NCBI GenBank assembly: GCA_934149305.1
Contig: CAKPEF010000002.1
Span: forward strand, 75,689-139,688
Length of the DNA: 64,000 nt
Source of the DNA: an uncultured Clostridia bacterium
Lineage (GTDB): Bacteria > Bacillota > Clostridia > TANB77 > UBA1234
Reading direction: 5' to 3'
The position numbers and the translations under genes were made by a program. The first letter of the stretch is position 1; each line of letters starts with the position of its first letter. Shown here one piece after another: positions 4,613 through 57,060 of this stretch. Under the pieces are notes generated by a model, which made no database searches, was not told the DNA's origin, and saw only the letters and a program-made list of their open reading frames with translations.

Positions 4613-4674
4613 AGAAAAATAGTCCAGAGCAACCTATGTTAAAAAATGGCAAAAAACTTGTTTGTAAATAATTA

Positions 4675-4703: not shown

Positions 4704-4723
4704 ATATCTTGCATTGGAAAGAC

Positions 4724-4801
4724 GGTGGATGTAGCTCAGTTGGTTAGAGCGCCAGGTTGTGGCCCTGGAGGCCGTGGGTTCGAGTCCCATCTTTCACCCC
4801 A
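4724..4801 (+). tRNA. tRNA-His (anticodon GTG) with encoded G-1
   Basis: Cloverleaf folded by hand. Anticodon loop is ttGTGgc, extra 5-prime G pairs with discriminator C73, CCA is encoded. Confidence 0.8.
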
Positions 4802-14227: not shown

Positions 14228-14740
14228 ATGAAGAAAGTAGATTTAAAAAAAGACATTGATATAAATGAGGTAAAAACAAAATCAAAAAGTTTTATGAAAG
14301 AATTTAAAGAATTTGCAATGAAAGGAAATGTTGTAGATTTAGCAATAGGTATGGTTATAGGCTCTGCATTTACTAGCATAGTTAATTCATTGGTAAATGA
14401 CATAATAACACCTTTAATTGGAGCAATAACTGGTGGACTTGACTTTTCAGAGTGGTTTATATCACTAGATGGAACCAAATATGCTTCACTTGCAGAAGCG
14501 AAAGATGCTGGAGCAGCAATACTTACATATGGAAACTTTATAACAGCTGTATTAAACTTTTTAATAGTAGCATTTGCAATATTTATAGTATTCAAAAAAA
14601 TATTGGTTCCACATCATAAAAAAGAAAAAGTAGCAGAAGTTACTCCTGCACCAGTTACTGAAAAAGAATGTCCTTATTGTAAATCGGTAATAAACATAAA
14701 TGCAACAAGATGCCCACATTGCACATCAGAACTAAAATAA
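14228..14740 (+). CDS. mscL: large-conductance mechanosensitive channel MscL with an unusual C-terminal CxxC...CxxC zinc-ribbon tail
   Basis: [23 protein letters not shown] core. The start is chosen at the RBS-supported ATG. The C-terminus is [18 protein letters not shown]. Confidence 0.75.
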
Positions 14741-14767
14741 AAGATTAAAAGCAAAACTCAAAATAAA

Positions 14768-14805
14768 AAAGATTTGTGCTTATATTAAAACACAAATCTT
14801 TTTAA
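14768..14805. terminator. bidirectional terminator between mscL and the serpin gene
   Basis: Stem aagatttgtg/cacaaatctt with A-run upstream and T-run downstream. Confidence 0.65.
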
Positions 14806-14816
14806 ATCATCAAATA

Positions 14817-16007: not shown

Positions 16008-16239
16008 AAAAAAACCTCCTTAAAAATAGCTTATATAAATTGGACAACTAAAAAAATGTAAAGTCTCGACTTTTAATAATACAAAAACTCTAAACATACT
16101 TAAAGTATAACATAGTGTTTACAAGAAAAGAAGAATAATATAAAATTATAAATAATAAAGTCACAAGAGATATAAATTGGCTGAAAAATATATCAATGCA
16201 AAATAATGGAAAGTAATTTAAAACGCAATTAGTAATAGT

Positions 16240-16475
16240 GGCACATGAAATGTAGCGGAGCACAGCGTGCTCCATAAAAGTATGTCGGCACCAACATGAT
16301 GAAACACAGTTTAAACCAATACCACAATTAGTAATAATGGCACACAAAAAGTAGCGGAGCTTAAGTGTGCTCCATAGAAAATATGTTGGCGACAATATAA
16401 CAAAACACAAATTCCACAATTGATAATAGGACACATAAAATGTAGCGGAGCTTAGGTGTGCTCCATAAAAAAGAG
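16240..16475 (+). repeat. tandem triplet (~73-bp period) of the GGAGC-hairpin repeat, immediately upstream of 16494
   Basis: Three units ...ccacaattagtaata.tggcacaNaaaa.gtagcggagc....gtgtgctccataaaa... Confidence 0.85.
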
Positions 16476-16493
16476 AAAAGGGGGGGAAGTTTA

Positions 16494-17345
16494 ATGGAAA
16501 TAAATGATGCAGATTCAAATCAAAATAATGAATTAGGTATAAATAATATAATAATACTTAAACCATATGAGCCAACAAATTATCGAAGGATAGTAAATGT
16601 TGTTTCTGATATTGGGTACAAGACTTTTTTCATTATCGCAATTATTGCACTGATTTGTACGATTAGAAGACATGAAAAAAATAAGAAAAATGAGGAAGCC
16701 AAAAAAAGCATAACACGAGGAGTTGTTCTTACAATAATATTTTTTATAATTTCAATTTTTGTATGGCTTGTCCATGTAGCAACAGAGTGTCTTACTGAAA
16801 AACCAATAATCTATCTATATCCAGAAGAAGAAACCAATATAGAAGTAAAATTAGGCAAGAAAGAAAATATAACATGTTCGTATCCAAAGTATGAAAACGG
16901 ATGGAAGGTTGTAGCAAATCCAAACGGAGATTTAAAATACATAGAAAATGGTAAAAACTTATATGCCCTATATTATGAAGCAAAGACAGAAAAAGAAAAT
17001 AAAGTAGAAAAAGAGGGCTTTGTAGTAAAAGGCGAAGATAGTGCCAATTTCTTAGAAGAAAAACTTGAAATATTAGGACTAAATGAAAGAGAGTCTGAAG
17101 AATTTATAGTATACTGGCTACCAAAGCTAGAAGCAAATAAATATAACTACATAAGATTTTTAAACAAAGAAGAAATAGAAGAAAACATGCCACTAGAAAT
17201 AGAGCCAAAACCAGATACACAAATAAGAGTTTTAATGACATTTAAGGGACTAAATAAAGAAATAAAAGTAGAAGAACAACAATTAACAAGAGTAGAAAGA
17301 AAAGGATATACAGTAGTAGAATGGGGCGGAAGCGAAATAAAATAA
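16494..17345 (+). CDS. hypothetical membrane-anchored protein (paralog A1). The C-terminal ~190 aa are identical to the 19414 product
   Basis: Start moved to the ATG after the RBS AAAAGGGGGGG; the track extension MLHKKEK lies inside the repeat. Two N-terminal TM helices. Confidence 0.6.
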   Translation: MEINDADSNQNNELGINNIIILKPYEPTNYRRIVNVVSDIGYKTFFIIAIIALICTIRRHEKNKKNEEAKKSITRGVVLTIIFFIISIFVWLVHVATECLTEKPIIYLYPEEETNIEVKLGKKENITCSYPKYENGWKVVANPNGDLKYIENGKNLYALYYEAKTEKENKVEKEGFVVKGEDSANFLEEKLEILGLNERESEEFIVYWLPKLEANKYNYIRFLNKEEIEENMPLEIEPKPDTQIRVLMTFKGLNKEIKVEEQQLTRVERKGYTVVEWGGSEIK

Positions 17346-17367
17346 AAAATAAAATAGGGGGAAAAAC

Positions 17368-17775
17368 ATGGAACTAAAAGCAGTGAAAAATGAAACTAAA
17401 AAAGAATATTTAACTAAAAAAGAGCAATATCAAAAAATAAAAAACAAAGCTGGAAAGATAGGAATAAGTACAACATTGATGTTTTTGGCAAGCAAGACAA
17501 GTTATGCGGTGGAAGGGGACCCTATGAGACTTGATGGTGCTTTACCTTATGAGCCACCAGTATATCTTAGAATTACGGGTCTTATTAGATGGGGATTTAT
17601 ATTTGCAGGAATAATTTCGTTAATTATAACTTTAACAATAGCTATAATAAATAGAAAAAAAGAAGATGTGAAGAAGAAAATAAAAAAAGGCTTAATAATT
17701 ACTGTTGCACTTTTCGGAATGAGTATTATATTGCAGATAGTTTATACTTTATTAGAGAAAAATATGTATTATTAG
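17368..17775 (+). CDS. small membrane protein, family B (conserved leader MELKAVKNETKKEYLTKKEQYQKIKNKAGKIGI..., variable body, two TM helices)
   Basis: Three paralogs in the window share the first ~45 aa and then diverge. Confidence 0.55.
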   Translation: MELKAVKNETKKEYLTKKEQYQKIKNKAGKIGISTTLMFLASKTSYAVEGDPMRLDGALPYEPPVYLRITGLIRWGFIFAGIISLIITLTIAIINRKKEDVKKKIKKGLIITVALFGMSIILQIVYTLLEKNMYY

Positions 17776-17961
17776 AAAATCAATTACAATCCAAGATTTA
17801 GTATTCCTGCTAGACCAAACTTTAAGTTTCAGAAAATATTTAATTTAAAAAAGTTAATACATTTGATTTTTGAAAATGATATAAAAAATACCTTATAGCC
17901 CATACAAAATAAATGTATATATAGTTATAAATTAAAAAATAAAAGGGGAGTAGATGTAATA

Positions 17962-18246
17962 ATGTATGAAGGATATGGAATAATCGAACCAGTAGATGAT
18001 ATGGTAGAACATAATTGCAAAGTACAAAGTATTGAAAAAATTTTTAGCATTGTAAGTAATAGTCTTTTTATAATATTCATCATAACAATGATTTTAACGA
18101 TTATAAGAGATATTAAAAACAAAAAGAGACCAGATGGTGAAAAAAGAAATTTTATAATTGACATTATTCTTGTAGTTTCATGCATAATATGTTTTTGCAC
18201 TGCAATTTTATGTTTTTGGCTTGCAAATGTATACGAGTGTAATTGA
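17962..18246 (+). CDS. hypothetical small membrane protein
   Basis: ORF preceded by an RBS; hydrophobic. Confidence 0.35.
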   Translation: MYEGYGIIEPVDDMVEHNCKVQSIEKIFSIVSNSLFIIFIITMILTIIRDIKNKKRPDGEKRNFIIDIILVVSCIICFCTAILCFWLANVYECN

Positions 18247-18445
18247 ATGTGGATTTATATTTGCAGGAATAATTTCGTTAATTATAACTTTAACAATAGC
18301 TATAATAAATAGAAAAAAAGAAGATGTGAAAAAGAAAATCAAAAAAGGCTTAATAATTACTGTTGTACTTTGGGGAATGGCAGTTATATTAGGAATAGCA
18401 ATTAATTTACTAAAAAATAAAATAGGGGGAAAAACATGGAACTAA
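18221..18445 (+). pseudogene. truncated remnant of a family-B gene (matches the 3-prime half of 17368-17775, lacks the leader)
   Basis: Identical from ggatttatatttgcaggaataatttcg onward; upstream sequence is unrelated. Confidence 0.5.
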
Positions 18446-19071
18446 AAGCAGTGAAAAATGAAACTAAAAAAGAATATTTAACTAGAAAAGAGCACTATCA
18501 AAAAATAAAAAACAAAGCTGGAAAAATAGGAATAGGCACAATATTGATGTTTATGGCAAGTAACATAAGTTATGCATTGCCAGGAGATGGTATAGATATT
18601 GCAGGTATTGCACCTATTTATACGACACCTGTATGGGTTAAGATTGTTGGTCTTGCTCAATGGATATTGATGTTTGTAGGAATAATTTTTTTGGTTGTAA
18701 ACTCTATAAAATTCATAGTAAACAGAGAGAAAGAAGACGCTGATAAAAAATTAAATCGTAATTTAATAGTAACAATATTATTATTTTCAATAGCATATTT
18801 TTTAAAAATAGTTGAGATGTGTTGTACAAATGGTAAAATGTACGGACCTAATTGCATTGAGTATGGACAGATGCATATTCATTATAGTCCTATTTATATT
18901 CTTTTGCAAAATATCATCGACATGCTTATACTCATAGCTTCTAGCGCTTTTGTAACAATGGTTTTAAAAAGTATAGTAAGAAAAAAAGCATATATAGTCG
19001 ATGCAGTAGAAATAATAATATTGTTTGTGTTAGCGGCTATTATTGGATGGGTAGTCCCATTTATACAATAG
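18436..19071 (+). CDS. family-B small membrane protein with an extended C-terminal region (paralog B2)
   Basis: Shares the MELKAVKNETKKEYLTRKEHYQKIKNKAGKIGIG leader. Confidence 0.55.
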   Translation: MELKAVKNETKKEYLTRKEHYQKIKNKAGKIGIGTILMFMASNISYALPGDGIDIAGIAPIYTTPVWVKIVGLAQWILMFVGIIFLVVNSIKFIVNREKEDADKKLNRNLIVTILLFSIAYFLKIVEMCCTNGKMYGPNCIEYGQMHIHYSPIYILLQNIIDMLILIASSAFVTMVLKSIVRKKAYIVDAVEIIILFVLAAIIGWVVPFIQ

Positions 19072-19169
19072 TATAAATACAGTTTAAGTTTGTTTAGGAA
19101 AGAATAACATTAACATATAAGCATATCGAAATGACTGTAAAAACACCACAATTGGTAATAGGGCACATA

Positions 19170-19395
19170 AAAATGTAGCGGAGCACAGCGTGCTCCATAA
19201 AAGTATGTCGGCACCAACATGATGAAACACAGTTTAAACCAACACCACAATTAGTAATAGTGGCACACAAAAAGTAGCGGAGCTTAAGTGTGCTCCATAG
19301 AAAATATGTTGGCGACAATATAACAAAACACAAATTCCACAATTGATAATAGGACACATAAAATATAGCGGAGCTTAGGTGTGCTCCATAAAAAA
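19170..19395 (+). repeat. tandem triplet of the GGAGC-hairpin repeat upstream of 19414
   Basis: Nearly identical to the 16240-16475 array. Confidence 0.85.
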
Positions 19396-19413
19396 GAAAA
19401 AGGGGGAATCTTA

Positions 19414-20277
19414 ATGGAAATAAATGAGGCAGATTTAAATCAAAAAAATGAATTAGATATAAATAATATAACGATAGCTGAAATACCTAAAGCAACCAAT
19501 TATCGAAGGATAATAAATATTGTTTCTAATATTGGATGCAATATTTTTTTCATTATTGCAATTATTGCACTGATTCTCACAATTAAGAGACATATAAAAA
19601 ATAAAAAAAATGAAGAAAAAAAGAGCATAGTACTTGGAATTGTTTTAACAGTAATATTTTTTTGTGTTTCACTAGTAGCGTGGGTGGTATATTTAGAAAC
19701 CAATTGGATAAATTATTCGCAAGCGGTTAAAAAACCAATAATCTACCTGTATCCAGAAGAAGAAACCAATATAGAAGTAAAGTTAGGCAAGAAAGAAAAT
19801 ATAACATGCTCGTATCCAAAGTATGAAAACGGATGGAAGGTTGTAGCAAATCCAAACGGAGATTTAAAATACATAGAAAATGGTAAAAACTTATATGCCC
19901 TATATTATGAAGCAAAGACAGAAAAAGAAAATAAAGTAGAAAAAGAGGGCTTTGTAGTAAAAGGCGAAGATAGTGCCAATTTCTTAGAAGAAAAACTTGA
20001 AATATTAGGACTAAATGAAAGAGAGTCTGAAGAATTTATAGTATACTGGCTACCAAAGCTAGAAGCAAATAAATATAACTACATAAGATTTTTAAACAAA
20101 GAAGAAATAGAAGAAAACATGCCACTAGAAATAGAGCCAAAACCAGATACACAAATAAGAGTTTTAATGACATTTAAGGGACTAAATAAAGAAATAAAAG
20201 TAGAAGAACAACAATTAACAAGAGTAGAAAGAAAAGGATATACAGTAGTAGAATGGGGCGGAAGCGAAATAAAATAA
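19414..20277 (+). CDS. hypothetical membrane-anchored protein (paralog A2)
   Basis: C-terminal domain identical to A1; N-terminal TM region diverged. Confidence 0.6.
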   Translation: MEINEADLNQKNELDINNITIAEIPKATNYRRIINIVSNIGCNIFFIIAIIALILTIKRHIKNKKNEEKKSIVLGIVLTVIFFCVSLVAWVVYLETNWINYSQAVKKPIIYLYPEEETNIEVKLGKKENITCSYPKYENGWKVVANPNGDLKYIENGKNLYALYYEAKTEKENKVEKEGFVVKGEDSANFLEEKLEILGLNERESEEFIVYWLPKLEANKYNYIRFLNKEEIEENMPLEIEPKPDTQIRVLMTFKGLNKEIKVEEQQLTRVERKGYTVVEWGGSEIK

Positions 20278-20299
20278 AAAATAAAATAGGGGGAAAAAC

Positions 20300-20710
20300 A
20301 TGGAACTAAAAGCAGTGAAAAATGAAACTAAAAAAGAATATTTAACTAAAAAAGAGCAATATCAAAAAATAAAAAACAAAGCCGGAAAAATAGGAATAGG
20401 CACAATGTTGATGTTCTTGGCAAGTGGGACAAGTTATGCATTGCCAGTAGATGTTACAAATATTACGCCGCTCGCAGGTGCTATGCCTATTGGTATGCCA
20501 CCTGCATGGTTTAGAGTTACCCATTGGTTATTAAGATTGGCAGGAATAATTTCTTTGATTATAACATTAATAGAAGTTATAGCGAGTTACATGCAAGAAG
20601 ATGCAAAAAAGAAAATCAAGAAAGATATAATAATCACAGTTGTCATCTTTGTGGTGGTTGTCATATTTGACATAGTATGTGCTTTATTAAAAAATCAAAT
20701 GTGGTGGTAA
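20300..20710 (+). CDS. family-B small membrane protein (paralog B3)
   Basis: Conserved leader followed by a variable body. Confidence 0.55.
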   Translation: MELKAVKNETKKEYLTKKEQYQKIKNKAGKIGIGTMLMFLASGTSYALPVDVTNITPLAGAMPIGMPPAWFRVTHWLLRLAGIISLIITLIEVIASYMQEDAKKKIKKDIIITVVIFVVVVIFDIVCALLKNQMWW

Positions 20711-20713
20711 ATT

Positions 20714-21805
20714 ATGAATTATACATTATATTTAACAGAAAAATGCAACTTGAATTGCAAGTACTGCTTTGAGGGGACAAAAGGTGAAAATGAACTTACT
20801 TTTGAAGATGTAAAAACAATAATGGATAGAGAGGTAGAGCTCGGCAGCAAAAATTGCATCTTAACTTTATTTGGAGGAGAGCCTCTTTTAAAAAAAGATT
20901 TGATTTTTGATATTGTAAATTATGCTAAAAAACTAGAAAAAGAAAATAAGATTAGATTTAAATATAGTATTACAACAAATGGAACTCTTATAGATGAAGC
21001 TTTTTTAAAACTTGCAAAGGAAAATGATTTTTTAATAGGTTATAGTTTAGATGGTGAAAAAGAAACGCAAAATAAAAACAGAATAAATTATAACGGCGAC
21101 GGAACATATGATGTGGTATTTGAAAATGCAAAAAAATTATTAAAGAATGTTAAAACGGTTGTAGCGATGCCTGTTATAACTAAAAATAATTATACAGATA
21201 TGACAAAGAATGTTGAACATCTTTTTGATATAGGTTTTAAAGCTGTAAATTGTGCGTTCGATTATATCGCAGACTGGCAAGATGATGATTTGCCAATATT
21301 AAAAAATGAATATACTAAACTTGCAGATATCTATTATCAGAGACTAAAAAAAGGAGAAAAATTATATCTTCAACCATTTGATAATAAAATATCAGACTAT
21401 ATAAAAGAGCAAGATTGCAATGAAAAATGCATGTTAGGCTTAAAACATGTGGATGTATCGAGCTATAAAAAAATATATCCATGTACTCAATTTGTTGGAA
21501 GAGAAGAATATGAAATTGGAAACATAGAAACAGGAATAGACAAATCAAAAAGAGAAAATTTGATAAAAAAATTACAAACAGATGGAAACGATATTTGCAA
21601 AGAATGTGAAATAAAAAAGCGTTGCAAGCACACATGCGGATGCTTAAATATATTAACCACTGGAGACCCGAAAGAAGTATCACCACTAATATGTGAGACA
21701 GAAAGAATGATAATAGAAATATCAGACAAACTTGCAGAAAGGCTGTATAAAGAAAAGGTGCAAACCTTTTATGAAAAAGAATATTTAGGATATGAAATAA
21801 TTTAG
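20714..21805 (+). CDS. radical SAM enzyme with a C-terminal SPASM/twitch Cys cluster (anSME / peptide-maturase family)
   Basis: CNLNCKYC radical SAM motif at the N-terminus; C-terminal CKECEIKKRCKHTCGC cluster. Start is 4 nt after the B3 stop. Confidence 0.7.
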   Translation: MNYTLYLTEKCNLNCKYCFEGTKGENELTFEDVKTIMDREVELGSKNCILTLFGGEPLLKKDLIFDIVNYAKKLEKENKIRFKYSITTNGTLIDEAFLKLAKENDFLIGYSLDGEKETQNKNRINYNGDGTYDVVFENAKKLLKNVKTVVAMPVITKNNYTDMTKNVEHLFDIGFKAVNCAFDYIADWQDDDLPILKNEYTKLADIYYQRLKKGEKLYLQPFDNKISDYIKEQDCNEKCMLGLKHVDVSSYKKIYPCTQFVGREEYEIGNIETGIDKSKRENLIKKLQTDGNDICKECEIKKRCKHTCGCLNILTTGDPKEVSPLICETERMIIEISDKLAERLYKEKVQTFYEKEYLGYEII

Positions 21806-25564: not shown

Positions 25565-26647
25565 TTAGCTTTTGAATTCTGCGTATTCATCATCAAATCT
25601 TTCAATGAATACAATATTCAAATCTTTTTCTATCTTTTCTTTATTATTCAATATTTCTGGCACAAACAAGTCAACTAAAGTAGGATCGAATTGTACACCT
25701 TTACATGCTTTTAATTCATCTAAAGCTTTGTATAGAGTAAATCTTGGGCGATAGCTTCTATCTGATGTCATAGCATCAAAAGAATCGGCTACACAGACAA
25801 TTCTTGCGCTTAGTGGTATATCTTCACCTTTAAGACCAGATGGGTAACCACGGCCATCATAGCGCTCGTGGTGATGCTTAACCATTGGTATTATATTGTC
25901 AAATATTTTGGCAGGCTTTAATATATGCTCACCAATCGATGGGTGATTTTTAATATCGTGATATTCATCATCAGTTAGTTTACCTGCTTTTTGAAGAATA
26001 GCATCAGGAATACCAATTTTACCAATATCGTGGAACAATCCACCATCTCTAATAAGCTCAACTTCTTCATCAGGAAGTCCTAAAGCCTTTGCAAGTAATA
26101 CTGAGTAGTAAGAAACTCTGTCTGAATGATTTTTAGTATAAGAATCCTTTGCATCAACAGCAAGTCTTAAAGACTCCATTGTGCCTTTATATGCAGACTT
26201 TAAATCGGCATAAGCAGTCTCAAGCTTTTGATTTATATCGTTTATTATTCTCATTTGTGTTACTGATTTTAGGCCTGATTCTATAAGAAGAAGTAATTGG
26301 TCGAATTTATCTGTTTTTTCGCAATACCCTTGAATATCTAATCTCTTAATTGTTTCTAATGGTGGTGCTAAGTCTTTGTGACCAGTAAGTAGCAATATGT
26401 ATAAGTTTTTGTTGAATTTTCTTATTTCTTCAACTACTTGATCTCCATGTATAGGCATCATTAAAAAGTCTAATAACATTAAGTCAAAATGCTCATTTCG
26501 AACCAATTCGATGGCCTTTAATGGGTCGGTAACACCTGTTATATTATAATGATTTAAAAAGATTTTTAGAGAGTCAATGATTCCTTGTTCATCATCAACA
26601 ACTAAAATTTTATAATTTTCTTTTTGCACAGAATCTTTTAATCGCAT
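25565..26647 (-). CDS. response regulator with REC + HD-GYP (c-di-GMP phosphodiesterase) domains, RpfG-like
   Basis: N-terminal REC (VVDDE...), HD (LFHDIGK) and GYP (HHERYDGRGYP). Confidence 0.8.
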   Translation of the reverse strand: MRLKDSVQKENYKILVVDDEQGIIDSLKIFLNHYNITGVTDPLKAIELVRNEHFDLMLLDFLMMPIHGDQVVEEIRKFNKNLYILLLTGHKDLAPPLETIKRLDIQGYCEKTDKFDQLLLLIESGLKSVTQMRIINDINQKLETAYADLKSAYKGTMESLRLAVDAKDSYTKNHSDRVSYYSVLLAKALGLPDEEVELIRDGGLFHDIGKIGIPDAILQKAGKLTDDEYHDIKNHPSIGEHILKPAKIFDNIIPMVKHHHERYDGRGYPSGLKGEDIPLSARIVCVADSFDAMTSDRSYRPRFTLYKALDELKACKGVQFDPTLVDLFVPEILNNKEKIEKDLNIVFIERFDDEYAEFKS

Positions 26648-26851
26648 ATGCGAGCCTCCTCTATTGTGAAATGTAATAAACTGTAAGCATTCACTTGTGG
26701 GGTTATAAAAAAATTATAACATTTCTATTTTTTTCGTCAATATGTAAATTATAGTGATAAATATCTATTTTAAAGTTGAAATATATACAATAAATGTTAT
26801 ATAATAACCAATATATAGGAACCTCAAAATTATCACTAGAGGAGGATATAA

Positions 26852-28837
26852 ATGAAAAAAGAACATTTTAAGCTAAAGGGAATACTTTTATATAACATAT
26901 TTTTTATAATATCATCTATCGTATTTTATTATTTAATTCCAATAATTTTAAATTATCCGCCAGATTCTATCAATAATGAATTTGAACGTGGAATTGATGA
27001 CGGCATGTTATTTAATGTTCAATTTACGATGATTATTATTTCAGTAATGATAATCTTTAATATGTTTTTTGTATATCAAGTTTCAAAAGTTAGCAAATAT
27101 AAAAAATATATAAATAAAGATGACGAATATAGCAAGAAGGCAATCGAAAAAATAAGAAAAAGATGTTTTACATCTCCATATAAGATATATGCGGTACATG
27201 CACTTGTTCCAAGTTTGGCAATTGGTTTTATTTTGTTTTTTACAGGTGCTGAAATGGTACTTACATTAAGAGTTGTTTTGCTTATTTTTGCATTTACCCT
27301 AGTTTTGGCATTACTATCATACATATCAGCTAAAGAAATTTTCACAACCGTGTTAAAAGAAATAAAGAATCAAACAAAATATGAGAAAAAGATAAATATC
27401 GGATATAAGTGGAAAATATTCTTTTTGATTTATCCACTTATGATGGCAACGATATTTTTATTTGCTTTTTCAACGAATTCTATGCTTGCCAGTGAAAGCG
27501 GAGATTTCATATACGAAAATTATAATTCACAAATGAATTTCATAAATTTCGATGAAGCCAAGACACTTGACGAATATAAACAAAAGTTGCATGAAATAGC
27601 TAAACATTCGACTTTAGATGAATTATTTATAATAACCGAAGATGAAGTGCTATATTCTGACAAGGAGAAAACGGGAATAGATAATTTCTTTAAAAGATAT
27701 ACATTTTACAATGCTAATGATGGAAGAACTTATGGATATTATGCGTCTAAAATTCAAGGCGTTTGTAAAATTTATGAGATTAATGGTCAGAAAATAGCGG
27801 TTGGAATAATGTATAATACAGAAACAATAGAGTATGTTAAAATAATTATATTTACAAGTATTGCGCTATTGCTTATGTGTGCGTTTTTTATGCAGTATTT
27901 TTCAAAAGATATTTGTGAACAGGTAATTATTGTTGCCAACAATATGCAAAAAATTGCAAATGAAAAAACAATAGATTACGACCAGAAGATGCCAGTTTTG
28001 TCTAATGATGAAGTGGGCGATTTGGTAGTATCTTTTAATAAAATATTAGATTTAGAGAAAAAACATGCATTGCAAGTACAAAAAAATCAAGAAATAATTG
28101 TCGAGCAAGAAAGACTTTCTTCACTCGGACAAATGATAGGAGGGATAGCACATAATTTAAAAACCCCAATAATGTCTATATCTGGTGCTTCACAAGCATT
28201 AAGTGAATTGATAAATGAGTATGATATGTCAATATCTAATCCAGTGGTTACGAGTGAGGACCATCATGATATTGCAAAAGATATGAACGAGTGGAATGAT
28301 AAGATTAAGGTTTATCTAGAATACATGGGTGAAATAATTGATGCTGTAAAAGGACAAGCAGTTACGATGAATGCTTCAAATATAACCGAATTCACCATTG
28401 GAGAACTTGTAGCACGTGTTAAAATTTTAATGAAAGAGCAATTGCTTCATAGAAATTGTACGTTGGATGTAAATATTAATCTAGATAAGAATGCAACAAT
28501 TTATGGCGAAATCAGTGCACTTGTACAAGTTATAAACAACTTAGTTATAAATGCAATAGATGCTTACGAAGGAAAAACGGGAAAGATCAATTTAGATGTT
28601 TCGTGTGATGAAGACAAATATTATATTACTGTAGAAGATTATGCAGGAGGAATTCCCAAATCAGTACAAGAAAAATTATTTAAAAAAATGATAACCACAA
28701 AAGGCAAAAATGGCACGGGCTTAGGCCTATATATGTGTTATTCAACAATCAAAGGAAAATTTAATGGAGATATGTTTTTTGAAACTAAAGAAGGCATAGG
28801 AACAAAGTTCACGATTGTTTTAAATAAGAATAAGTAA
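26852..28837 (+). CDS. membrane sensor histidine kinase
   Basis: H-box GGIAHNLKTP and HATPase G-boxes GTGLGL; polytopic N-terminus. Confidence 0.8.
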   Translation: MKKEHFKLKGILLYNIFFIISSIVFYYLIPIILNYPPDSINNEFERGIDDGMLFNVQFTMIIISVMIIFNMFFVYQVSKVSKYKKYINKDDEYSKKAIEKIRKRCFTSPYKIYAVHALVPSLAIGFILFFTGAEMVLTLRVVLLIFAFTLVLALLSYISAKEIFTTVLKEIKNQTKYEKKINIGYKWKIFFLIYPLMMATIFLFAFSTNSMLASESGDFIYENYNSQMNFINFDEAKTLDEYKQKLHEIAKHSTLDELFIITEDEVLYSDKEKTGIDNFFKRYTFYNANDGRTYGYYASKIQGVCKIYEINGQKIAVGIMYNTETIEYVKIIIFTSIALLLMCAFFMQYFSKDICEQVIIVANNMQKIANEKTIDYDQKMPVLSNDEVGDLVVSFNKILDLEKKHALQVQKNQEIIVEQERLSSLGQMIGGIAHNLKTPIMSISGASQALSELINEYDMSISNPVVTSEDHHDIAKDMNEWNDKIKVYLEYMGEIIDAVKGQAVTMNASNITEFTIGELVARVKILMKEQLLHRNCTLDVNINLDKNATIYGEISALVQVINNLVINAIDAYEGKTGKINLDVSCDEDKYYITVEDYAGGIPKSVQEKLFKKMITTKGKNGTGLGLYMCYSTIKGKFNGDMFFETKEGIGTKFTIVLNKNK

Positions 28838-28854
28838 TATAAGGGGGAAAAATT

Positions 28855-31800
28855 ATGTTTAGTTTAACAGAGCCACAAAAGAATGTAATTGAAACGGATC
28901 AATTTTTTAAAAACACTTCAATTTCAAATATTGGAGGTTATTCGAGATTTTTAGACAGAGTAGATTTGGAACTAATGAAAAAAGCCATAAATAAATTAAT
29001 CGAAAATGCAGATGGGCTAAGACTTAGGCTAAAAAATGATAATGGTGAAATAAGTCAGTATATAGAGCCTTACAGAGAAGAAAAAATTGAGATTATTAAA
29101 TTGGATGGAGAAAACCCTATGGTCCAAAGCGAGAAATGGATGAGAAAACCATTTGGCTTTACATCTAAATTGTATGACTTTAAATTGGTTGAATTAGATG
29201 GCGAAGAAGGAATTTTCATAAAACTACATCATGCAATATCTGATGCATGGTCTATGGCAATTGTTTATTCGAAGGTTCTTATGTATTACGAGGCTTTGTT
29301 AAACGGAGAAGAAATACAAAATGATATACCTTCATATACTTTATTTTTAGAGAGTGAAAAAGAATATTTTAACTCAAAAAACTATGAAAGAGATGAAGAA
29401 TATTGGAATGAAAAATATAATGAAAAACCAACTTTTGTTTCACTTGCAAGTAAAAAAGGAGTAATAAGCGTAGCAGCTTCAAGAAAATCATTTATTATAT
29501 CAAAAGAAGAAAAGAAAGTAATAGAAGACTTTTGCACAGAAAATGGGATTTCTATGGCAGTATTTTTTGAAGCAGTTGTTTCTTTGTATGCTTCGAGAAC
29601 TAATAATGCTGATGATATTACACTTTGTACGATAGGTGTAAATAGATCAGGAAAAACCGAAAAGAAAATAGTAGGTATGTTTAATAATATTTTACCAATG
29701 ACAGTTAAAATTGATTGGAATTCGGATTTTAAAAATTTATGTAATAGCATTACAAAGGCACATTTTGAAATCTTTAGACATCAAAAATATCCGTACCAAA
29801 AAATAATGCATGCTATTAGCGAAAAACACGGAAGTTCTAATATTTATGATATAATGGTATCTTTTCAAAATGCAAAATATGATGAAAATATAAAAACAAA
29901 ATACAAAACAGAATGGATTTTTAATGGTTGTGCAGAACTTAGCTTTATGATGAATATAGCTGATATGGAAGGTGCGGGCGTATTAGATGTAAATATAGAT
30001 TATAAAGATGAAGCATTCACGGAAAATGAAATAGAGAAAATATATGCAAGACTTATGCATATAGTACAGCAAGTAATAAGGAAAAAAGAAATATCATTTA
30101 AAGATATAGAGGTTGTTACTGATGATGAGAAATTAGAAATATTGAAAAAATTTAATGATACTAAAAAAGATTATCCAAAAGAAAAGAGAATATATGACTT
30201 TTTAGAAGAGAATGTTATGAAATTTCCTCAAAAAGATGCATTATATTTTGAGGAAAATAAGATGTCATATTGTGAGTTTAATCAAAAAGTAAATTCACTT
30301 GCAAACTATATCATAAGCAAAAATGTAAAGCATAATTCAATAATAGGAATTATGCAAGAACGTTCATTTGAAATGCTTATAAGTATTTATGCAGCATTAA
30401 AAGCTGGCTGTGCATATATGCCTATGGACCCACATTTTCCAAACGATAGAATAGAATTCATGTTAGAAGATAGTGAAGCACCTATTGTTCTTACTAATTC
30501 AAAATGGTTGGACAAGTTAACGATGGCAAAAGAATGCGTGGAAGTAGATAAGTTTGATTATGAAAAATATTCAAAAGAAAATCCTAAAATAGATGTATCT
30601 TCAAAAGATGTGGCATATGTAATTTATACATCAGGTTCTACTGGAAAACCAAAAGGTGCGCAAATACAACATCATAGTGCAATAAACAGAATAAAATGGA
30701 TGCATGAACATTATCCTCTTTTGAAAGATGATGTAATACTTCAAAAAACCCCATATACTTTTGATGTGTCAGTATGGGAACTATTTTGGTGGAGCATGTA
30801 TGGCGGTAGCTTGAAAATACTTATACCAGAAGGACACAAGGATCCATTAGAAATAATAAATGCAATAGAAGATAAAAATGTAACACATATGCATTTTGTA
30901 CCATCTATGTTAATGGCATTTTTACAGTATATAAAAATAAATAAGAATCAAATTTCAAGATTAAAAACATTAAAATATGTTTTTGCAAGTGGTGAGGCTC
31001 TTCAAAGTGAACACGTAAAAGATTTTTATAACTTGCTAGGTCAAAATGGAACAATACTTATAAATTTGTATGGACCAACTGAATGTACGGTTGATGTTTC
31101 GTGTTATGAATGTCCTAAAGAAAACATACCAAGTATAATTCCGATAGGCAAGCCTATTGATAACACACAACTTTTGATATTAGATAAAGCTAATAAATTG
31201 TTGCCAGTCGGTGTTGCAGGAGAACTTATAATAAGTGGTGTGTTAGTAGGAAAAGGATACATAAAAAGAGATGAACTAACAAACGAAAAATTTATAAAGA
31301 ATGAATATTATGACTCTGAAAAAATGTATAAAACAGGTGACTTAGCAAGATGGCTTCCTGATGGAAACATTGAATACTTAGGAAGAATAGATAATCAAAT
31401 TAAAATTAGAGGTTTAAGAGTTGAACTTGGTGACATAGAAAATACTATACTTAAATATGCTTCTATAGCTGAAACTGTTGTTACAGTGTTCGAAAACATG
31501 GGAGAAAAATACTTGTGTGCATACTTTACAGCAACCGAAGAAATAGCAATACCAAAACTAAAAGAAGAGCTATCAAAAGAATTACCGGACTATATGGTAC
31601 CAACATATTATGTGCAATTGGACAAAATGCCATTAAATCATAATGGAAAAATAGATAGAAAAGCTTTACCAAAGCCAGATACAAATATCGAAGAAAAATA
31701 TATTGCACCTCAAAACGAGTTAGAAAAGAAATTACAAGAATGTGCCGAAAGAGCTTTAAAGAGAAAAAATATAAGCGTTGAGAGTGATTTGCTTTTATCT

Positions 31801-33066
31801 GGTCTTACATCACTAGGAGTTATTGCATTAATCACAGAATTATCTAACATGGGTATAGAGGTTAAAGTGCAAGACTTTTATAGAGGAAAGAGCATAAGAA
31901 AACTAGCCAATATCTTGTTAGGTGATGATAAAAAAGATGAAGATTATAAAGATGATGAAAATTATAAAGATATATCAGACATAAAAGATATAGTGGTAGA
32001 AACGAAGAATGATGGGGATATACTATTAACAGGTGTAACAGGATTTCTTGGAATTCATTTGCTAGAAGAACTATATAAAACAACAAATAGAAAAATTTAT
32101 TGTATTATTAGAAAAAAAGAAAAATATGATGAATTCTTGAAAACATATACAAGTATTCCAAAAGAAAATGACAGGGTAATAACATTAAATGGTGATATAA
32201 CTAATGAAAAATTAGGCTTGGATGATAATGTGTACGAGAAATTGACACATGACGTTTCTATTGTAATTCATTCAGCTGCTAATGTTTCATACTTCTGTTC
32301 ATTTGAGAAAGCAAGAGCAATTAATTACATTGGGACATGCAATGTAATTGAGTTTGCTAAATTAAGTAATGCAAAATTACATCATATTTCAACGATGAGT
32401 GTTTCGGGAGATGTACTTACTAAGCAAACTATGGAATATCCAAATTTGACGGAAGATAAGTTATATATAGGACAACTATATAAAGAAAATGTTTATGCAT
32501 ATACAAAATATTTAGCTGAAAAAGAGGTTATAAAAAATATAAGAGAGAAGAAATTATCAGCATCAATATATCGTTTGCCAAACTTAACTTGGAGAATGAA
32601 AGATGGAAAGTTCCAAAAGAATTATGAAGAAAACGATTTATATATTTTGACAAAAGTAATGGCAAGAATGAATAAAATACCATTGGAAATAAAGAATGAA
32701 AATATTTTATTGGCACCAATAGATGATTTAGCAAGAGCAATAGTATTACTAATAAATAAAAAGACTCAAAATGAGGTATATCATCTAGTTAGTTCATCAA
32801 GCCCAACAATAGAAGGATATATAAAAATGCTTACTGATGCGGAGACAGTACCAATTGCAGAAATGTACAAAATACTATTAGATAATTATCAAGATAAAGA
32901 AATGCAATTTGTATCGATGTATGTAAAAGGAATTTTAAATGATGCAGAGAAAATGGTAGTACACGTACATTATGAAAAAACGGAAAAAGAGTTAGAAGAA
33001 TTAGGATTTAAATGGGGAAAAATCGATAAAGAATACGTAGAAAAGATAAAACAAATAGGTAAATAA
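28855..33066 (+). CDS. single-module nonribosomal peptide synthetase, C-A-T-R (condensation, adenylation, thiolation, terminal NAD(P)H thioester reductase)
   Basis: C domain HHAISDAWS; A domain YTSGSTGKPKG, NLYGPTE, YKTGD, GRIDNQIKIRG; carrier Ser in LSGLTSLG; R domain TGVTGFLG Rossmann motif. Confidence 0.85.
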   Translation: MFSLTEPQKNVIETDQFFKNTSISNIGGYSRFLDRVDLELMKKAINKLIENADGLRLRLKNDNGEISQYIEPYREEKIEIIKLDGENPMVQSEKWMRKPFGFTSKLYDFKLVELDGEEGIFIKLHHAISDAWSMAIVYSKVLMYYEALLNGEEIQNDIPSYTLFLESEKEYFNSKNYERDEEYWNEKYNEKPTFVSLASKKGVISVAASRKSFIISKEEKKVIEDFCTENGISMAVFFEAVVSLYASRTNNADDITLCTIGVNRSGKTEKKIVGMFNNILPMTVKIDWNSDFKNLCNSITKAHFEIFRHQKYPYQKIMHAISEKHGSSNIYDIMVSFQNAKYDENIKTKYKTEWIFNGCAELSFMMNIADMEGAGVLDVNIDYKDEAFTENEIEKIYARLMHIVQQVIRKKEISFKDIEVVTDDEKLEILKKFNDTKKDYPKEKRIYDFLEENVMKFPQKDALYFEENKMSYCEFNQKVNSLANYIISKNVKHNSIIGIMQERSFEMLISIYAALKAGCAYMPMDPHFPNDRIEFMLEDSEAPIVLTNSKWLDKLTMAKECVEVDKFDYEKYSKENPKIDVSSKDVAYVIYTSGSTGKPKGAQIQHHSAINRIKWMHEHYPLLKDDVILQKTPYTFDVSVWELFWWSMYGGSLKILIPEGHKDPLEIINAIEDKNVTHMHFVPSMLMAFLQYIKINKNQISRLKTLKYVFASGEALQSEHVKDFYNLLGQNGTILINLYGPTECTVDVSCYECPKENIPSIIPIGKPIDNTQLLILDKANKLLPVGVAGELIISGVLVGKGYIKRDELTNEKFIKNEYYDSEKMYKTGDLARWLPDGNIEYLGRIDNQIKIRGLRVELGDIENTILKYASIAETVVTVFENMGEKYLCAYFTATEEIAIPKLKEELSKELPDYMVPTYYVQLDKMPLNHNGKIDRKALPKPDTNIEEKYIAPQNELEKKLQECAERALKRKNISVESDLLLSGLTSLGVIALITELSNMGIEVKVQDFYRGKSIRKLANILLGDDKKDEDYKDDENYKDISDIKDIVVETKNDGDILLTGVTGFLGIHLLEELYKTTNRKIYCIIRKKEKYDEFLKTYTSIPKENDRVITLNGDITNEKLGLDDNVYEKLTHDVSIVIHSAANVSYFCSFEKARAINYIGTCNVIEFAKLSNAKLHHISTMSVSGDVLTKQTMEYPNLTEDKLYIGQLYKENVYAYTKYLAEKEVIKNIREKKLSASIYRLPNLTWRMKDGKFQKNYEENDLYILTKVMARMNKIPLEIKNENILLAPIDDLARAIVLLINKKTQNEVYHLVSSSSPTIEGYIKMLTDAETVPIAEMYKILLDNYQDKEMQFVSMYVKGILNDAEKMVVHVHYEKTEKELEELGFKWGKIDKEYVEKIKQIGK

Positions 33067-33359
33067 TAAAAAGAATCTTTTGTAAATCATTTAAAATAGT
33101 CGGAATAAAAAATAGAATCTAAATTGTTATTAAAAATAATATGAATCATTTTAAATTAGCTAGTCTAATAAAGATGATACATATTAAAAGTATAACAGTG
33201 AGGATTCTATTTTTGTGTGAAAACAACATATTAATTCTCATAAGCTACTAAAATGCTCTAAAAATGATTTTGCGTATTAAATGTTAAATAATAGGCCTGC
33301 AAGTATAAAACTAAGAAAAACGGCAAAAATTTACCTTAGGAGGTATATTATGGAGTCGT

Positions 33360-34502
33360 ATGGATATAGAGAAAGAAAAAATGGTAATTTTTTTAAGTAT
33401 ATACTAGTAATATTAGCTACAGCAGCAATAACTTTATACATTAACAATGCTATGCAAAAAGCAAGTGAAATAGATGACTTTGCCAAGAGACTAAGTAGCA
33501 GTGGAGAAAACACGGTAAAAGAAGAAATAACAGAGTTTAGTGCTACTAAGACAAGCAATTATATCGAAAGAGCAATGCAAAGCACAGTTGGAATAGGGCT
33601 TATAAAACCTAGTGGCACAAGTGTTTTTGATTTGGATTTAGCTAGAAAATGGGGTCTTCGGAACTGGGATAATAGTATCAGAAAAAGGATATATATTAAC
33701 AAATCAACATTTGGCACAAAAAGTTGGAGCTAAGATTGTCGTAACGCTAAACACGGGCAAATCAGTACAGGGAAAAATAGTTTGGGTGGAAGAAAACATA
33801 GACCTAAGCTTAATAAAAGTAGAAGAAAAAGGTTTGACACCTGCAATATTAGGCGATTCAAACGATATATTAGTTGGCGATGAGGTAATAGCAATCGGAA
33901 ATCCGCTTGGAGCCGAATTTCAAGGAACGACAACAAAAGGCATAGTAAGCGGTTTAGATAGAACAATAATGTTTGAAGAGAATAATGAAAAAGTATATAT
34001 GGAAGGCTTAATTCAAACAGATGCAAGTATAAATCCAGGAAACAGCGGTGGACCGCTAATAAATGCAAGGGGCGAAGTAATTGGAATAAACACAGTTAAA
34101 ATCACATCAGCAGAGGGGATAGGTTTTGCTGTACCAATAAACTTAATAAAGAATGTGATAAATTCTTATGTTTTAGAAGATAAATTCGATGAGGCATATT
34201 TAGGGCTTTATGCGTATGATAATGGAGCAATAAAATACATGGAAAATAAGAACAACTTTGAAAAAGGAATATATATCGTAAGCGTTGACAAAATAGGACC
34301 ATGTGGAAAGGTGGGAGTAGCAAAAGGCGATATATTAACAAAAATTGATGGAAAGGAAATAAATAAGATGACAAAATTAAGAGAATATTTATATTCGAAA
34401 AAGCCAGGTGAAAAAGTTGTTTTAACACTTGAAAACTCAAGCTTAAAAGAAGTAGAAGTGGAACTTCGGAAAGAAAAAATAAAAGAGATGTTAAAAAGTT
34501 AA
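33360..34502 (+). CDS. htrA: HtrA/DegP-family serine protease with a PDZ domain, interrupted by an in-frame CGG at 33659-33661 followed by a +1 frame. Given as two ORFs in the track; the second in-frame CGG at 34467 sits near the C-terminus
   Basis: TM anchor; His-box region GTGIIVSEKGYILTNQHL; Ser site GNSGGPL; PDZ. Deleting the C of the CGG yields WGLGTGIIVS. Confidence 0.65.
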
Positions 34503-34536: not shown

Positions 34537-34613
<77 letters not shown>

Positions 34614-34711: not shown

Positions 34712-34788
34712 GCGTTCGTAGCTCAGTTGGATAGAGCGCTCCCCTCCTAAGGGAGAGGTCGGAGGTTCAATTCCCCTCGGACGCACCA
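34712..34788 (+). tRNA. tRNA-Arg (anticodon CCT)
   Basis: Acceptor gcgttcg/cggacgc; anticodon loop ctCCTaa; CCA is encoded. Confidence 0.8.
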
Positions 34789-34917
34789 ATGACGTATCTG
34801 TTCGAACTAATGGAACAGAATTGATACAAAATCAATCAGAAAATAAAATCTGGTTGATTTTTACGAAAAAATATTGTGATTTGTGAACAAAGCAAACGAA
34901 TACGAGGAGGAGTAAAA

Positions 34918-35832
34918 ATGAAAAATAATATAAAGGCGGTTGCTACCGCAAGCCTAGCTGGATTTATATTAGGAACAACATTGACTGTATCTGCTGGTAC
35001 ATGGATACAAGCATATAGAAATGACGAGATAAAAATAACTTTGAATGGAAAAGAACAAACATTTAGAGATGCTACAACAAATGAAATAGAGCTACCAATT
35101 ACATATAATAATAGAACATATTTACCACTTAGAAGTTTAGCTACATTACTTGGAATAAGTGTGGATTATGATGCAAATACAAAAACAGCTATATTAGAAA
35201 CTAAAAATGATGGAAAATTGCGCCCAGAGACTATAGGAGAATTTTGCGATATAGAGGAAGAAAGTGGCTTAGTTTATTATGGACCGGATAAAAGTTTGTA
35301 TGGCTTTGAAGATGAAATTGGCCCTGGATGCTCTGTGTGGTGTGCTGTACAGGATGGTGAAAGCAAAGCAAAGGCATCTTCAACATTAAAGCCTCAAGCT
35401 GGTTTTTCTTATGAAGCTTCAAATATAACAAATGACCTTAGAAAAAATGCGTGGGTAGAAGGTGCAGATGGCTATGGTATAGGCGAATATATAGAACTAT
35501 CACAAAAGTATGTTGTAGCTGATAAGAACTATGGTATTGATTTTATGAGCTTGTGTATAGTAAATGGATATGCAGAAAATAGTGAAAAATGGAAAAACAA
35601 TAGTAGGGTAAAGGAACTAAAAATGTACTATAATGGAGAGTATATTGCTAATATTGAATTAAAGGATACTATTAAGCCACAATATATAGACATAAGTTCA
35701 TTTGGCTTACATGCTAAATCTGGCAAAGAAGCTAAATTTAAATTTGAGATTGTTGATGTATATAAAGGTGAAAAATATGAGGATACTGCTATAACAGGCA
35801 TCTGTTTCGATATTTATACACCTAATCACTAA
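34918..35832 (+). CDS. secreted protein with a copper-amine-oxidase-like N-terminal (stalk) domain
   Basis: Signal peptide; NGKEQTF...LPLRSLATLLGISVDYD motif typical of Cu_amine_oxidN1. Start chosen at the RBS-supported ATG. Confidence 0.55.
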   Translation: MKNNIKAVATASLAGFILGTTLTVSAGTWIQAYRNDEIKITLNGKEQTFRDATTNEIELPITYNNRTYLPLRSLATLLGISVDYDANTKTAILETKNDGKLRPETIGEFCDIEEESGLVYYGPDKSLYGFEDEIGPGCSVWCAVQDGESKAKASSTLKPQAGFSYEASNITNDLRKNAWVEGADGYGIGEYIELSQKYVVADKNYGIDFMSLCIVNGYAENSEKWKNNSRVKELKMYYNGEYIANIELKDTIKPQYIDISSFGLHAKSGKEAKFKFEIVDVYKGEKYEDTAITGICFDIYTPNH

Positions 35833-57058: not shown

Positions 57059-57060
57059 AA

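Follow-up and report, generated by a model that had tools for sequence, protein, structure and literature searches.

In the agr (AgrB/D/C/A) and comQXPA systems, the signal gene or genes and the N-terminal sensor of the kinase form a hypervariable block that is flanked by the conserved kinase core and the regulator. RpfG, the regulator of the Rpf system, is an HD-GYP protein, and on the biosynthetic side ScoA-C and Rv0099-0101 (isonitrile lipopeptides) as well as the ColG-type enzymes for serinol amides of cyanobacteria (columbamide) follow one logic, namely that an acyl group held by a carrier or coenzyme A (CoA) is joined to one amino acid and the product is released by reduction. Diffusible signal factor (DSF) signalling with RpfF and RpfC is a precedent for the logic of lipid signals (PMC6591275), the Pvf autoinducers are a precedent for signals made by a non-ribosomal peptide synthetase (NRPS) (PMC10194917), and the N-acyl amides of human commensals, N-acyl serinol among them, act on human G-protein-coupled receptors (GPCRs) and have been noted for their resemblance to acyl-homoserine lactones (PMC10407893). 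Here we describe a locus on a 64-kb stretch of contig CAKPEF010000002.1 from an uncultured Clostridia bacterium (the whole stretch analysed is called the window in the following). It encodes an NRPS of 1403 amino acids (aa) with one condensation (C), adenylation (A), carrier (T) and terminal reductase (R) domain, a histidine kinase and a divergent REC-HD-GYP response regulator. On balance we favour the interpretation that the NRPS makes a lipid signal, which would be sensed by the cognate kinase with its six transmembrane (TM) helices and have the hydrolysis of cyclic di-GMP (c-di-GMP) as output.

The first-pass annotation of the window had regarded the coupling of such an NRPS to a c-di-GMP regulator as unusual. 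Our analysis revealed a conserved cassette instead. Three relatives (L088, L090 and L094) encode an NRPS with the same serine code together with a full-length orthologue of the kinase (45-66% identical) and the regulator (73-81% identical), and a fourth (L085) has the kinase beside the NRPS, with the regulator absent to a distance of 10 kb. The regulator is found in varying order and orientation among these lineages, whose leucyl-tRNA synthetase (LeuRS) is about 82% identical between the genomes. Full-length homologues of the kinase fall into more than 120 clusters, and two distant kinases (40-42% identical), which were picked blind to their context, were both located in NRPS(C-A-T-R)-kinase-REC-HD-GYP operons. 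A metagenome survey seeded with kinase motifs only yielded 80 loci, many of them labelled human gut, with kinases 34-98% identical to that of the window. The 44 loci with at least 4.5 kb on both sides were used as test set, and kinases were clustered at 70% identity. A C-A-T-R NRPS directly adjoins the kinase in 43 of the 44 well-flanked loci, the last one having the order NRPS-ligase-acyl carrier protein (ACP)-kinase, and the HD-GYP regulator was found in 40. Counted by testable kinase clusters, an adjacent NRPS is present in 34 of 35 and the regulator in 25 of 29. The NRPS gene precedes the kinase gene at 65 loci and follows it, as in the clade of the window, at three. This kinase family is essentially always partnered with a C-A-T-R NRPS. 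Literature searches that paired NRPS with HD-GYP or serinol, and C-A-T-R with acyl ligase and serine, with most subscription journals outside their scope, returned no description of the cassette, which is apparently widespread in gut Clostridia and undescribed.

The cassettes differ in the amino acid that their NRPS is predicted to select. At least ten different ten-residue specificity (Stachelhaus) codes of the A domain were found, namely the Ser code DVWHFSLVDK, the Asn-type DLTKIGEVGK and the Thr-type DFWNIGMVHK (both assigned after PMC12283262), the Gly-like DILQMGMVWK, and furthermore DSELTAEVCK, DAESIGTVCK, DVAYLGGICK, DIFQMAGIFK, DIFLIGLVYK and DAIFGGLMQK. Among non-redundant cassettes, pairs with the same code have sensor identities of 0.29, 0.39, 0.50 and 0.75 over rising bins of kinase-core identity; pairs with different codes have sensor identities of about 0.25 at any core identity (0.247 at a core identity of 0.75-0.9, n = 21). 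A core-matched set was formed by 42 pairs, not phylogenetically independent of each other, with kinase cores at least 0.75 identical. In 34 of them the NRPSs are less than 0.5 identical and the mean sensor identity is 0.27 (maximum 0.51), and in the other eight, with an NRPS identity of at least 0.5, it is 0.76 (minimum 0.59). The partial rank correlation of sensor and NRPS identity given the core was 0.44, a value reached in none of 2000 matrix permutations. In 30-residue windows the break in identity lies at kinase residues ~390-420, with a rise from 0.2-0.6 to 1.0 at residues 421-450.

Cassettes with different codes are mostly ~25-40% identical in NRPS and sensor and 75-95% identical in kinase core, regulator and acyl ligase. 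Between L160 and L163, for example, the DHp and CA domains of the kinase have identities of 0.88 and 0.95, TM1-5, the extracytoplasmic loop and TM6/HAMP of 0.24, 0.22 and 0.38, and the NRPS domains of 0.29-0.40, with the product of the protease gene htrA 82% identical. Between L123 and L165 the corresponding kinase values are 0.88 and 0.76 (DHp, CA) and 0.27, 0.24 and 0.32 (TM1-5, loop, TM6/HAMP); the A, T and R domains of the NRPS are at 0.33-0.39, the C domain is at 0.53 (0.70 over its first 60 residues), and acyl ligase, regulator and htrA product are 85%, 86% and 67% identical. The variable unit is the NRPS together with the kinase sensor, and the constant unit is the kinase core together with the regulator (and ligase and htrA where present). 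The extracytoplasmic loop domain co-varies as well, though it is out of reach for a cytoplasmic enzyme.

We read the kinase as receptor of the NRPS product mainly because this co-variation of synthetase and sensor is the kind of signature known from agr and comQXPA, and we hold it somewhat more probable than the contrary that the kinase senses this product. The first-pass annotation had seen a biosynthetic gene cluster wired to a regulator. The arrow is probably to be reversed, since the regulator has no DNA-binding domain, and the sensor co-varies with the NRPS whereas kinase core and regulator do not. That the system serves genuine cell-to-cell signalling is a more tentative suggestion. Equally tentative is the wider proposal that gut and rumen Clostridia might hold a large and hitherto undescribed family of quorum-sensing-like systems with one-module NRPSs, in which the head group would define the specificity group, the six-TM kinase would read it and c-di-GMP would be hydrolysed in response; the window would then represent the serine member.

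The C-A-T-R architecture with terminal reductase, which had been recognized from the sequence in the first pass, was borne out by Pfam matches to Condensation, AMP-binding, PP-binding and NAD_binding_4. More than 50 clusters of ~1400-aa NRPS homologues, 48-99% identical, were found, and conservation was assessed in an alignment of 29 homologues. Invariant in this alignment are His126 and Asp130 of the C-domain active site (HHAISDA, the G of HHxxxDG being replaced by A), Asp637 and Lys932 of the A domain (the equivalents of Asp235 and Lys517), Ser986 of the carrier, and Gly1060 (in TGxxGxxG), Tyr1214 and Lys1218 of the reductase; Thr1180 of the reductase is kept in all homologues but one, which has Ser. 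The A-domain core motifs YTSGSTGKPKG, NLYGPTE, YKTGD and NGKIDRK are all present. We looked for an inactive reductase or a degenerate A domain, and found the Tyr/Lys pair kept and the A domain intact. With TGVTGFLG and Thr1180/Tyr1214/Lys1218 the reductase appears active, which agrees with the earlier prediction that an amino aldehyde or alcohol is released. Its best relatives in PDB are NRPS and polyketide synthase reductases (6vtj, MxaA 4u7w, AusA 4f6c), and its score against the thioester reductase domain model TIGR01746 is 148.7 bits, below the cut-off of 213.35 bits. The C domain gave 97 bits with the internal C domain of LgrA and 59-62 bits with the starter C domains 4jn3 and 7c1h in PDB. 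We take it as acting on an external acyl donor because of its N-terminal position and the ligase and ACP neighbours in relatives. NCBIfam equivalog cut-offs were not reached by the NRPS (AusA 656 vs 2500, MxcG 507 vs 2300, EntF 511 vs 2400). A scan of genome contigs with the NRPS alignment, which was driven by universal NRPS motifs, gave only unrelated NRPSs among the matches listed (best identity 38%). In comparison with the 91%-identical relative L098, dN/dS of the NRPS is 0.087 (C 0.128, A 0.036, T 0.019, R 0.183; 0.023 for leuS), and judged by these ratios the NRPS is under purifying selection. Given dN/dS and the intact motifs, we rejected the idea that it might be a pseudogene. The carrier motif reads GLTSLG (residues 983-988), with Thr before Ser, in most of the Ser clade, the usual form being (D/H)S; distant cassettes have the usual IDSL.

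Extraction of the A-domain code gave DVWHFSLVDK for the window, and all ten positions match the code of the Ser-activating EntF domain (PMC3795760). The exact code is present in 24 of 25 aligned homologues that are at least 39% identical, the 25th differing at one position, and Ser-type domains, including EntF and 8xjz (DVWHFSLID), are among the best PDB matches of the pocket region. The A domain is predicted to activate L-serine, and the product is likely N-acyl-serinal or N-acyl-serinol, made by reductive chemistry on N-acyl-Ser. The carrier-bound N-acyl-Ser would be released as N-acyl-serinal, possibly as N-acyl-serinol after a second reduction, and either form fits the sequence. The earlier assignment to the peptide-aldehyde or pyrazinone type could not be upheld, as there is one Ser module and identity to the known bimodular enzymes does not exceed 28-36%; one module with a blocked amine cannot give rise to dipeptide aldehydes or pyrazinones.

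Locally the NRPS is the orphan that it had been called: neither a thioesterase nor a phosphopantetheinyl transferase (PPTase) adjoins it, as already noticed in the first pass, nor does an acyl ligase or an ACP. The term does not extend to all relatives, some of which have genes for acyl ligase, ACP and PPTase in the corresponding position, though most cassettes are without them. A search for genes of the N-acyl donor found none in the 64 kb, and the lineage of the window would have to draw its acyl group from a source not linked to the locus (acyl-CoA, acyl-ACP or a ligase and ACP elsewhere). To judge by gene content, the PPTase for this NRPS must be encoded elsewhere, too. Ligase and ACP adjoin the NRPS in L085, L090, L092, L096, L097, L099 and L106; in the relatives with a fatty-acid-type AMP ligase and an ACP (73-76 aa), the NRPS is 41-60% identical to that of the window. 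The order in L090 (NRPS 60% identical) is leuS, regulator (minus strand), kinase, NRPS, ligase, ACP, PPTase and htrA, which is the order of the window plus three accessory genes, apart from a tRNA-synt_1b gene that lies between leuS and the regulator in the window and is missing from the L090 order. A Sfp-type PPTase is encoded at the locus in two relatives, L090 and L092. By NCBIfam the ligases are nearest to long- and medium-chain fatty-acid ligases and the PPTase to the AusB (Sfp) type, all below cut-offs. In the wider survey a ligase is adjacent in about 10 of 39 kinase clusters, and an ACP was detected in only one of those. Acyl supply from general metabolism seems to be the rule and not a defect of the window locus.

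Some relatives of the NRPS are found in other surroundings. In L092, L096 and L097 a Ser-code NRPS (49-54% identical), accompanied by ligase and ACP, is part of a mobile element, with a resolvase, a relaxase or MobA encoded nearby. A conserved protein of 247-248 aa without a Pfam or NCBIfam match is common to L096 and L097, and L092 has a second NRPS of 1962 aa ending in a thioesterase. The Ser-code NRPS of L099 (2109-18746), 41% identical and likewise accompanied by ligase and ACP, is encoded divergently from a kinase of AgrC-like type (HATPase_c_5) and a LytTR regulator; a type III CRISPR-Cas block (Cas10/Cmr-like) comes next. The arrangement of L099 again points to signalling, through another type of receptor.

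The kinase has the Pfam domains HAMP, HisKA and HATPase_c, its sensor region matches no Pfam family, and His434 is invariant. An alpha/beta domain of ~120 aa (about residues 208-328) was placed between TM5 and TM6 by hydropathy and an AlphaFold model (pLDDT 81.6); by the positive-inside rule this loop domain would face outward, and the sensor model has a faint PAS/PDC-like resemblance to the periplasmic domain of CpxA. In the regulator we identified the phospho-acceptor Asp60 and the motifs HDIGK (at 206) and HHERYDGRGYP (at 259), which mark it as a predicted c-di-GMP phosphodiesterase. It scores 200 bits against the NCBIfam model for NosR-family c-di-GMP phosphodiesterases (cut-off 400 bits), and the Pfam scan detected no DNA-binding domain in it. 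In the 91% sister lineage L098 (6314-8300; proteins P0192-P0195) the partner kinase is split into 291 and 385 aa by a 1-nt insertion. The 385-aa fragment occurs in four protein clusters from ~11 contigs and is probably not an assembly error, and the two halves have dN/dS values of 0.13 and 0.06 against the window. An Asn-code cassette (L100, 10014-11522) encodes a regulator of 502 aa with DUF3369 inserted between REC and HD-GYP, and its NRPS, kinase and regulator genes abut without an intergenic gap.

The coordinates given in the first pass, with the start codon of the NRPS 17 nt past the stop of the kinase gene and the regulator gene divergent, all hold (Table 1; gene positions are from the open reading frame list of the window). 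An AGGAGG ribosome-binding site lies upstream of the kinase ATG. We searched the junction of kinase and NRPS for a terminator-like site and found none, and both genes are probably co-transcribed. An Rfam scan of the window at gathering thresholds gave only four tRNAs and the signal recognition particle (SRP) RNA, and neither a c-di-GMP riboswitch nor another RNA element at the NRPS/kinase locus. The G+C content of the window is ~30%, and the same locus is present in at least 11 metagenome contigs.

Table 1. Positions of the synthetase, kinase and regulator features and of the neighbouring protease gene in the window.
Feature	Position	Strand	Description
Response regulator gene	25565-26647	-	360 aa, divergent from kinase and NRPS; Pfam PF00072 Response_reg 14-121, PF13487 HD_5 163-324, HD
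Divergent intergenic region	26648-26851		The two best promoter-like sites of the locus
Promoter-like site	26740-26713	-	TTGACG-16-TATAAT, 11/12 match (consensus match only)
Promoter-like site	26776-26805	+	TTGAAA-18-TATAAT, 11/12 match (consensus match only)
Histidine kinase gene	26852-28837	+	661 aa
Kinase sensor half	26852-28021	+	Residues 1-390; six predicted TM helices, extracytoplasmic alpha/beta domain, HAMP
Kinase conserved core	28112-28837	+	Residues 421-661; DHp with His434 (HNLKTP) and ATPase domain; Pfam HisKA, HATPase_c
Kinase-NRPS spacer	28838-28854	+	17 nt; strong ribosome-binding site AAGGGGG, read from the sequence
NRPS gene	28855-33066	+	1403 aa, ATG start, uninterrupted
Condensation domain	28861-30141	+	Residues 3-429; PF00668 Condensation, E 1.8e-70
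Adenylation domain	30202-31650	+	Residues 450-932; PF00501 AMP-binding 450-802, E 4e-81; AMP-binding_C 861-932
Carrier (T) domain	31729-31911	+	Residues 959-1019; PF00550 PP-binding, E 2e-7, 31.6 bits (cut-off 20.8)
Thioester reductase	32026-33045	+	Residues 1058-1397; PF07993 NAD_binding_4 1058-1296, E 4e-42
htrA (trypsin-like protease and PDZ)	33350-34502	+	Two frames, extra base at 33659; Pfam Trypsin_2, PDZ

An htrA gene does follow the NRPS, as had been stated, though its reading frame is split by the extra base (AAA TGG GGT CTT C GGA ACT in the window versus AAA TGG GGC ATA GGA ACA in intact orthologues). The 91% sister lineage and contigs that match the window exactly have the extra base as well, and purifying selection acts on both halves (omega 0.11 and 0.04). 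The shift site reads CUU-CGG-A after UGGGGU; among the Arg codons of the window CGG is used least (4 of 13025 codons), and we take this site to resemble the known +1 frameshift sites of prfB and Ty1. The split gene is a candidate for programmed +1 frameshifting or, alternatively, a pseudogene of some age. In the survey htrA is a recurrent neighbour, located near the cassette in ~20 of 39 kinase clusters. In L098 an integrase, a Phage_CRI/G2P replication gene and many small open reading frames, together filamentous-phage-like, are inserted downstream of htrA (14272-21749).

From these data we propose the following mechanism. An acyl donor, unlinked in the lineage of the window, would supply a fatty or short acyl group, the NRPS would load L-serine and its C domain would form N-acyl-Ser on the carrier, from which the terminal reductase would free N-acyl-serinal, possibly reduced on to N-acyl-serinol. 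This amphiphile would get to the membrane or the cell exterior and be recognized by the six-helix sensor and the extracytoplasmic domain of the cognate kinase. His434 of the kinase would then phosphorylate Asp60 of the regulator, and HD-GYP activity, the c-di-GMP level and c-di-GMP-controlled behaviour would change. Lineages whose synthetase/sensor pairs differ (Ser, Asn-like, Thr-like, Gly-like and others) and whose core and regulator are the same would represent specificity groups. What the sequences themselves show is the set of domains, the intact catalytic residues, the Ser code, the purifying selection, the conserved adjacency of the genes and the joint variation of NRPS and sensor. The steps from acyl supply to release of the aldehyde or alcohol are predicted from domain logic, intact residues and the gene content of relatives. 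Export, recognition, phosphotransfer and the c-di-GMP steps we infer from conserved linkage and co-variation, and the acyl donor, the choice between aldehyde and alcohol, the export, the recognition of the ligand and the direction of regulation are put forward in the same sense.

Several observations weigh against a signal read by its own kinase. The regulator is missing in 4 of the 44 well-flanked loci, and the Ser-code NRPSs of L092, L096 and L097 occur without a two-component system, so that the NRPS can evidently be of use in the absence of this kinase. Several contigs of the sister lineage carry a split kinase, yet purifying selection on the NRPS persists there. No family-level database model meets its cut-off for NRPS or regulator, a Foldseek search of PDB with the sensor model had no significant match (best E 0.36), and tblastn searches of the 64-kb window with the acyl ligase, ACP and PPTase of relatives matched only the A domain of the NRPS itself. 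As for the co-variation, the core-matched pairs share ancestry, and feedback or self-sensing in membrane homeostasis would give the same pattern.

The last point belongs to an explanation in which the product would be a structural or protective amphiphile of the membrane; the kinase would gauge its level or the state of the membrane, HtrA would handle damage to envelope proteins, and no communication between cells would take place. The six-TM sensor and the presence of htrA near about half of the kinase clusters in several arrangements would agree with this, and self-sensing predicts the co-variation of sensor and NRPS equally well. Structural lipids, however, rarely vary their head group between close lineages, and the number of codes found here is large (at least ten); the extracytoplasmic domain co-varies too, and the linkage to htrA may be an inherited neighbourhood, as tadA, MarR and dnaX are also shared. 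We regard this explanation as improbable, and only slightly more credit is due to the one in which the two-component system senses an outside cue and controls, via c-di-GMP, a reactive acyl-amino aldehyde directed at proteases of host or competitors. For such an aldehyde speak the terminal reductase and the 28-36% identity to bimodular R-terminated NRPSs of Clostridia, which make dipeptide aldehydes (PMC12327764), and the tight operon-like linkage of kinase and NRPS and the frequent neighbourhood of htrA, a serine protease gene, would fit as well. A sensor of external cues would have no cause to switch with the specificity of the NRPS, yet both co-vary sharply. Furthermore, the regulator has no DNA-binding output, no c-di-GMP riboswitch or other Rfam element was detected at the locus, and the single Ser module and the polar head groups of relatives (Asn-, Thr- and Gly-like) contrast with the hydrophobic P1 residues of known inhibitors. 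This, too, makes an unlikely account of the locus.

Two further explanations concern the NRPS itself. If the C domain were non-acylating, the enzyme would release free serinal, two molecules of which would combine into a pyrazine or dihydropyrazine, in the manner of A-T-R enzymes (PvfC-type systems, for instance). The 64-kb window has no acyl donor genes and most cassettes have no adjacent ligase or ACP, and pyrazine-type signals made by reductive release from an NRPS are known (from the reference list of PMC10194917). HHxxxD is kept in every member, though, omega of the C domain is 0.128, and fatty-acid ligase and ACP lie directly beside the NRPS in relatives, which leaves this a very improbable case. 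Least probable of all is that the NRPS is a decaying remnant that became non-functional in the lineage of the window after loss of ligase, ACP and PPTase. L090 has these three genes between NRPS and htrA where the window has only 215-283 nt, the adjacent htrA is frameshifted, and the kinase of the sister lineage is split. Against decay stand the 4.2-kb reading frame, intact in at least 11 independent contigs with all catalytic residues kept, and the dN/dS values, 0.087 for the whole NRPS and 0.036 for its A domain, in a comparison of two lineages neither of which has the accessory genes. A signal made by the NRPS and sensed by its cognate kinase remains the reading we prefer.

Other genes of the window are described here for completeness. 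A full-length serpin gene, unusual for bacteria, was found at 14817-16007 (minus strand; Pfam Serpin, E 3e-86). Large proteins with Listeria-Bacteroides repeats (Flg_new) are encoded at 134-3574 (plus strand) and 3951-4790 (minus strand); the latter reading frame shares part of its length with a tRNA-His (4725-4801) and is perhaps not a genuine gene. There are two further signalling loci, one with a GHKL/HATPase_c_5 kinase of AgrC/LytS-like type (5534-6547, plus strand) and one with a classical HAMP-HisKA kinase and an OmpR-type regulator (55529-57729, minus strand). Just past htrA lie two tRNA-Arg genes, at 34537-34613 (minus strand, anticodon ACG) and 34712-34788 (plus strand, anticodon CCT), and then a gene (34876-35832, plus strand) for a protein with a copper-amine-oxidase N-terminal (cell-wall-associated) domain and an NAD-glycohydrolase translocation F5/8 type C domain.

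Few biosynthetic genes are as common in gut Clostridia as those for R-terminated NRPSs, on whose native role there is no agreement. For the one-module branch described here a testable answer is now at hand, namely that each enzyme would come with its own receptor. If our interpretation is correct, these systems would represent a new chemical class of bacterial signals and the first route from an NRPS to c-di-GMP signalling in Firmicutes in the literature searched, and the N-acyl amino aldehyde or alcohol would be the anaerobe counterpart of acyl-homoserine lactones or DSF. As N-acyl serinols act on human GPCRs, the same molecules could serve bacterial signalling and cross-talk with the host. 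Natural specificity groups would bear on strain-level interactions in the gut, and matched and mismatched pairs of synthetase and sensor offer a ligand-receptor assay for products that are hard to isolate from uncultured anaerobes.

Among described systems, the Rpf/DSF system of Xanthomonas and Lysobacter has a similar logic: the genes for a lipid-type synthase, a multi-pass sensor kinase and a REC-HD-GYP regulator lie together, and the system acts through hydrolysis of c-di-GMP. Rpf includes the acyl ligase RpfB, and some of the cassettes have a fatty-acid ligase as neighbour. In contrast to Rpf/DSF, the synthase is an NRPS and not the crotonase RpfF, the kinase is without the receiver and HPt domains of RpfC, and the host belongs to the Clostridia and not to the Proteobacteria. 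As there is no sequence kinship beyond generic domains, the likeness is one of logic and not of membership. With agr and comQXPA the cassette shares a hypervariable block, here NRPS and sensor, that co-varies beside a conserved kinase core and regulator and comes in variants between close lineages. Those systems, however, use ribosomal peptide signals and DNA-binding, autoinducing regulators, whereas here the signal gene encodes an NRPS and the output is enzymatic.

Regarding biosynthesis, the NRPS aligns over its full length with MxcG of myxochelin, at 507 bits and thus far below the cut-off of 2300. The ScoA-C, Rv0099-0101, MxcG and ColG-type systems have their assembly logic in common with this NRPS but use other amino acids or tailoring steps, and none of these clusters is known to contain a sensor kinase. 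With the bimodular R-terminated NRPSs known from gut Clostridia (dipeptide aldehydes, pyrazinones, ruminopeptin) the enzyme shares the N-terminal C domain and the terminal reductase, at 28-36% identity (PMC12327764). They are ~2400 aa long with two modules and make dipeptides, in contrast to one Ser module, 1403 aa and an obligate kinase partner here, and the sources found on them mention no linked kinase. The N-acyl synthases of commensals differ in being single acyltransferase-type enzymes without reductive release by an NRPS or a linked bacterial receptor, but the end product predicted here, N-acyl serinol, would belong to the same class of compounds.

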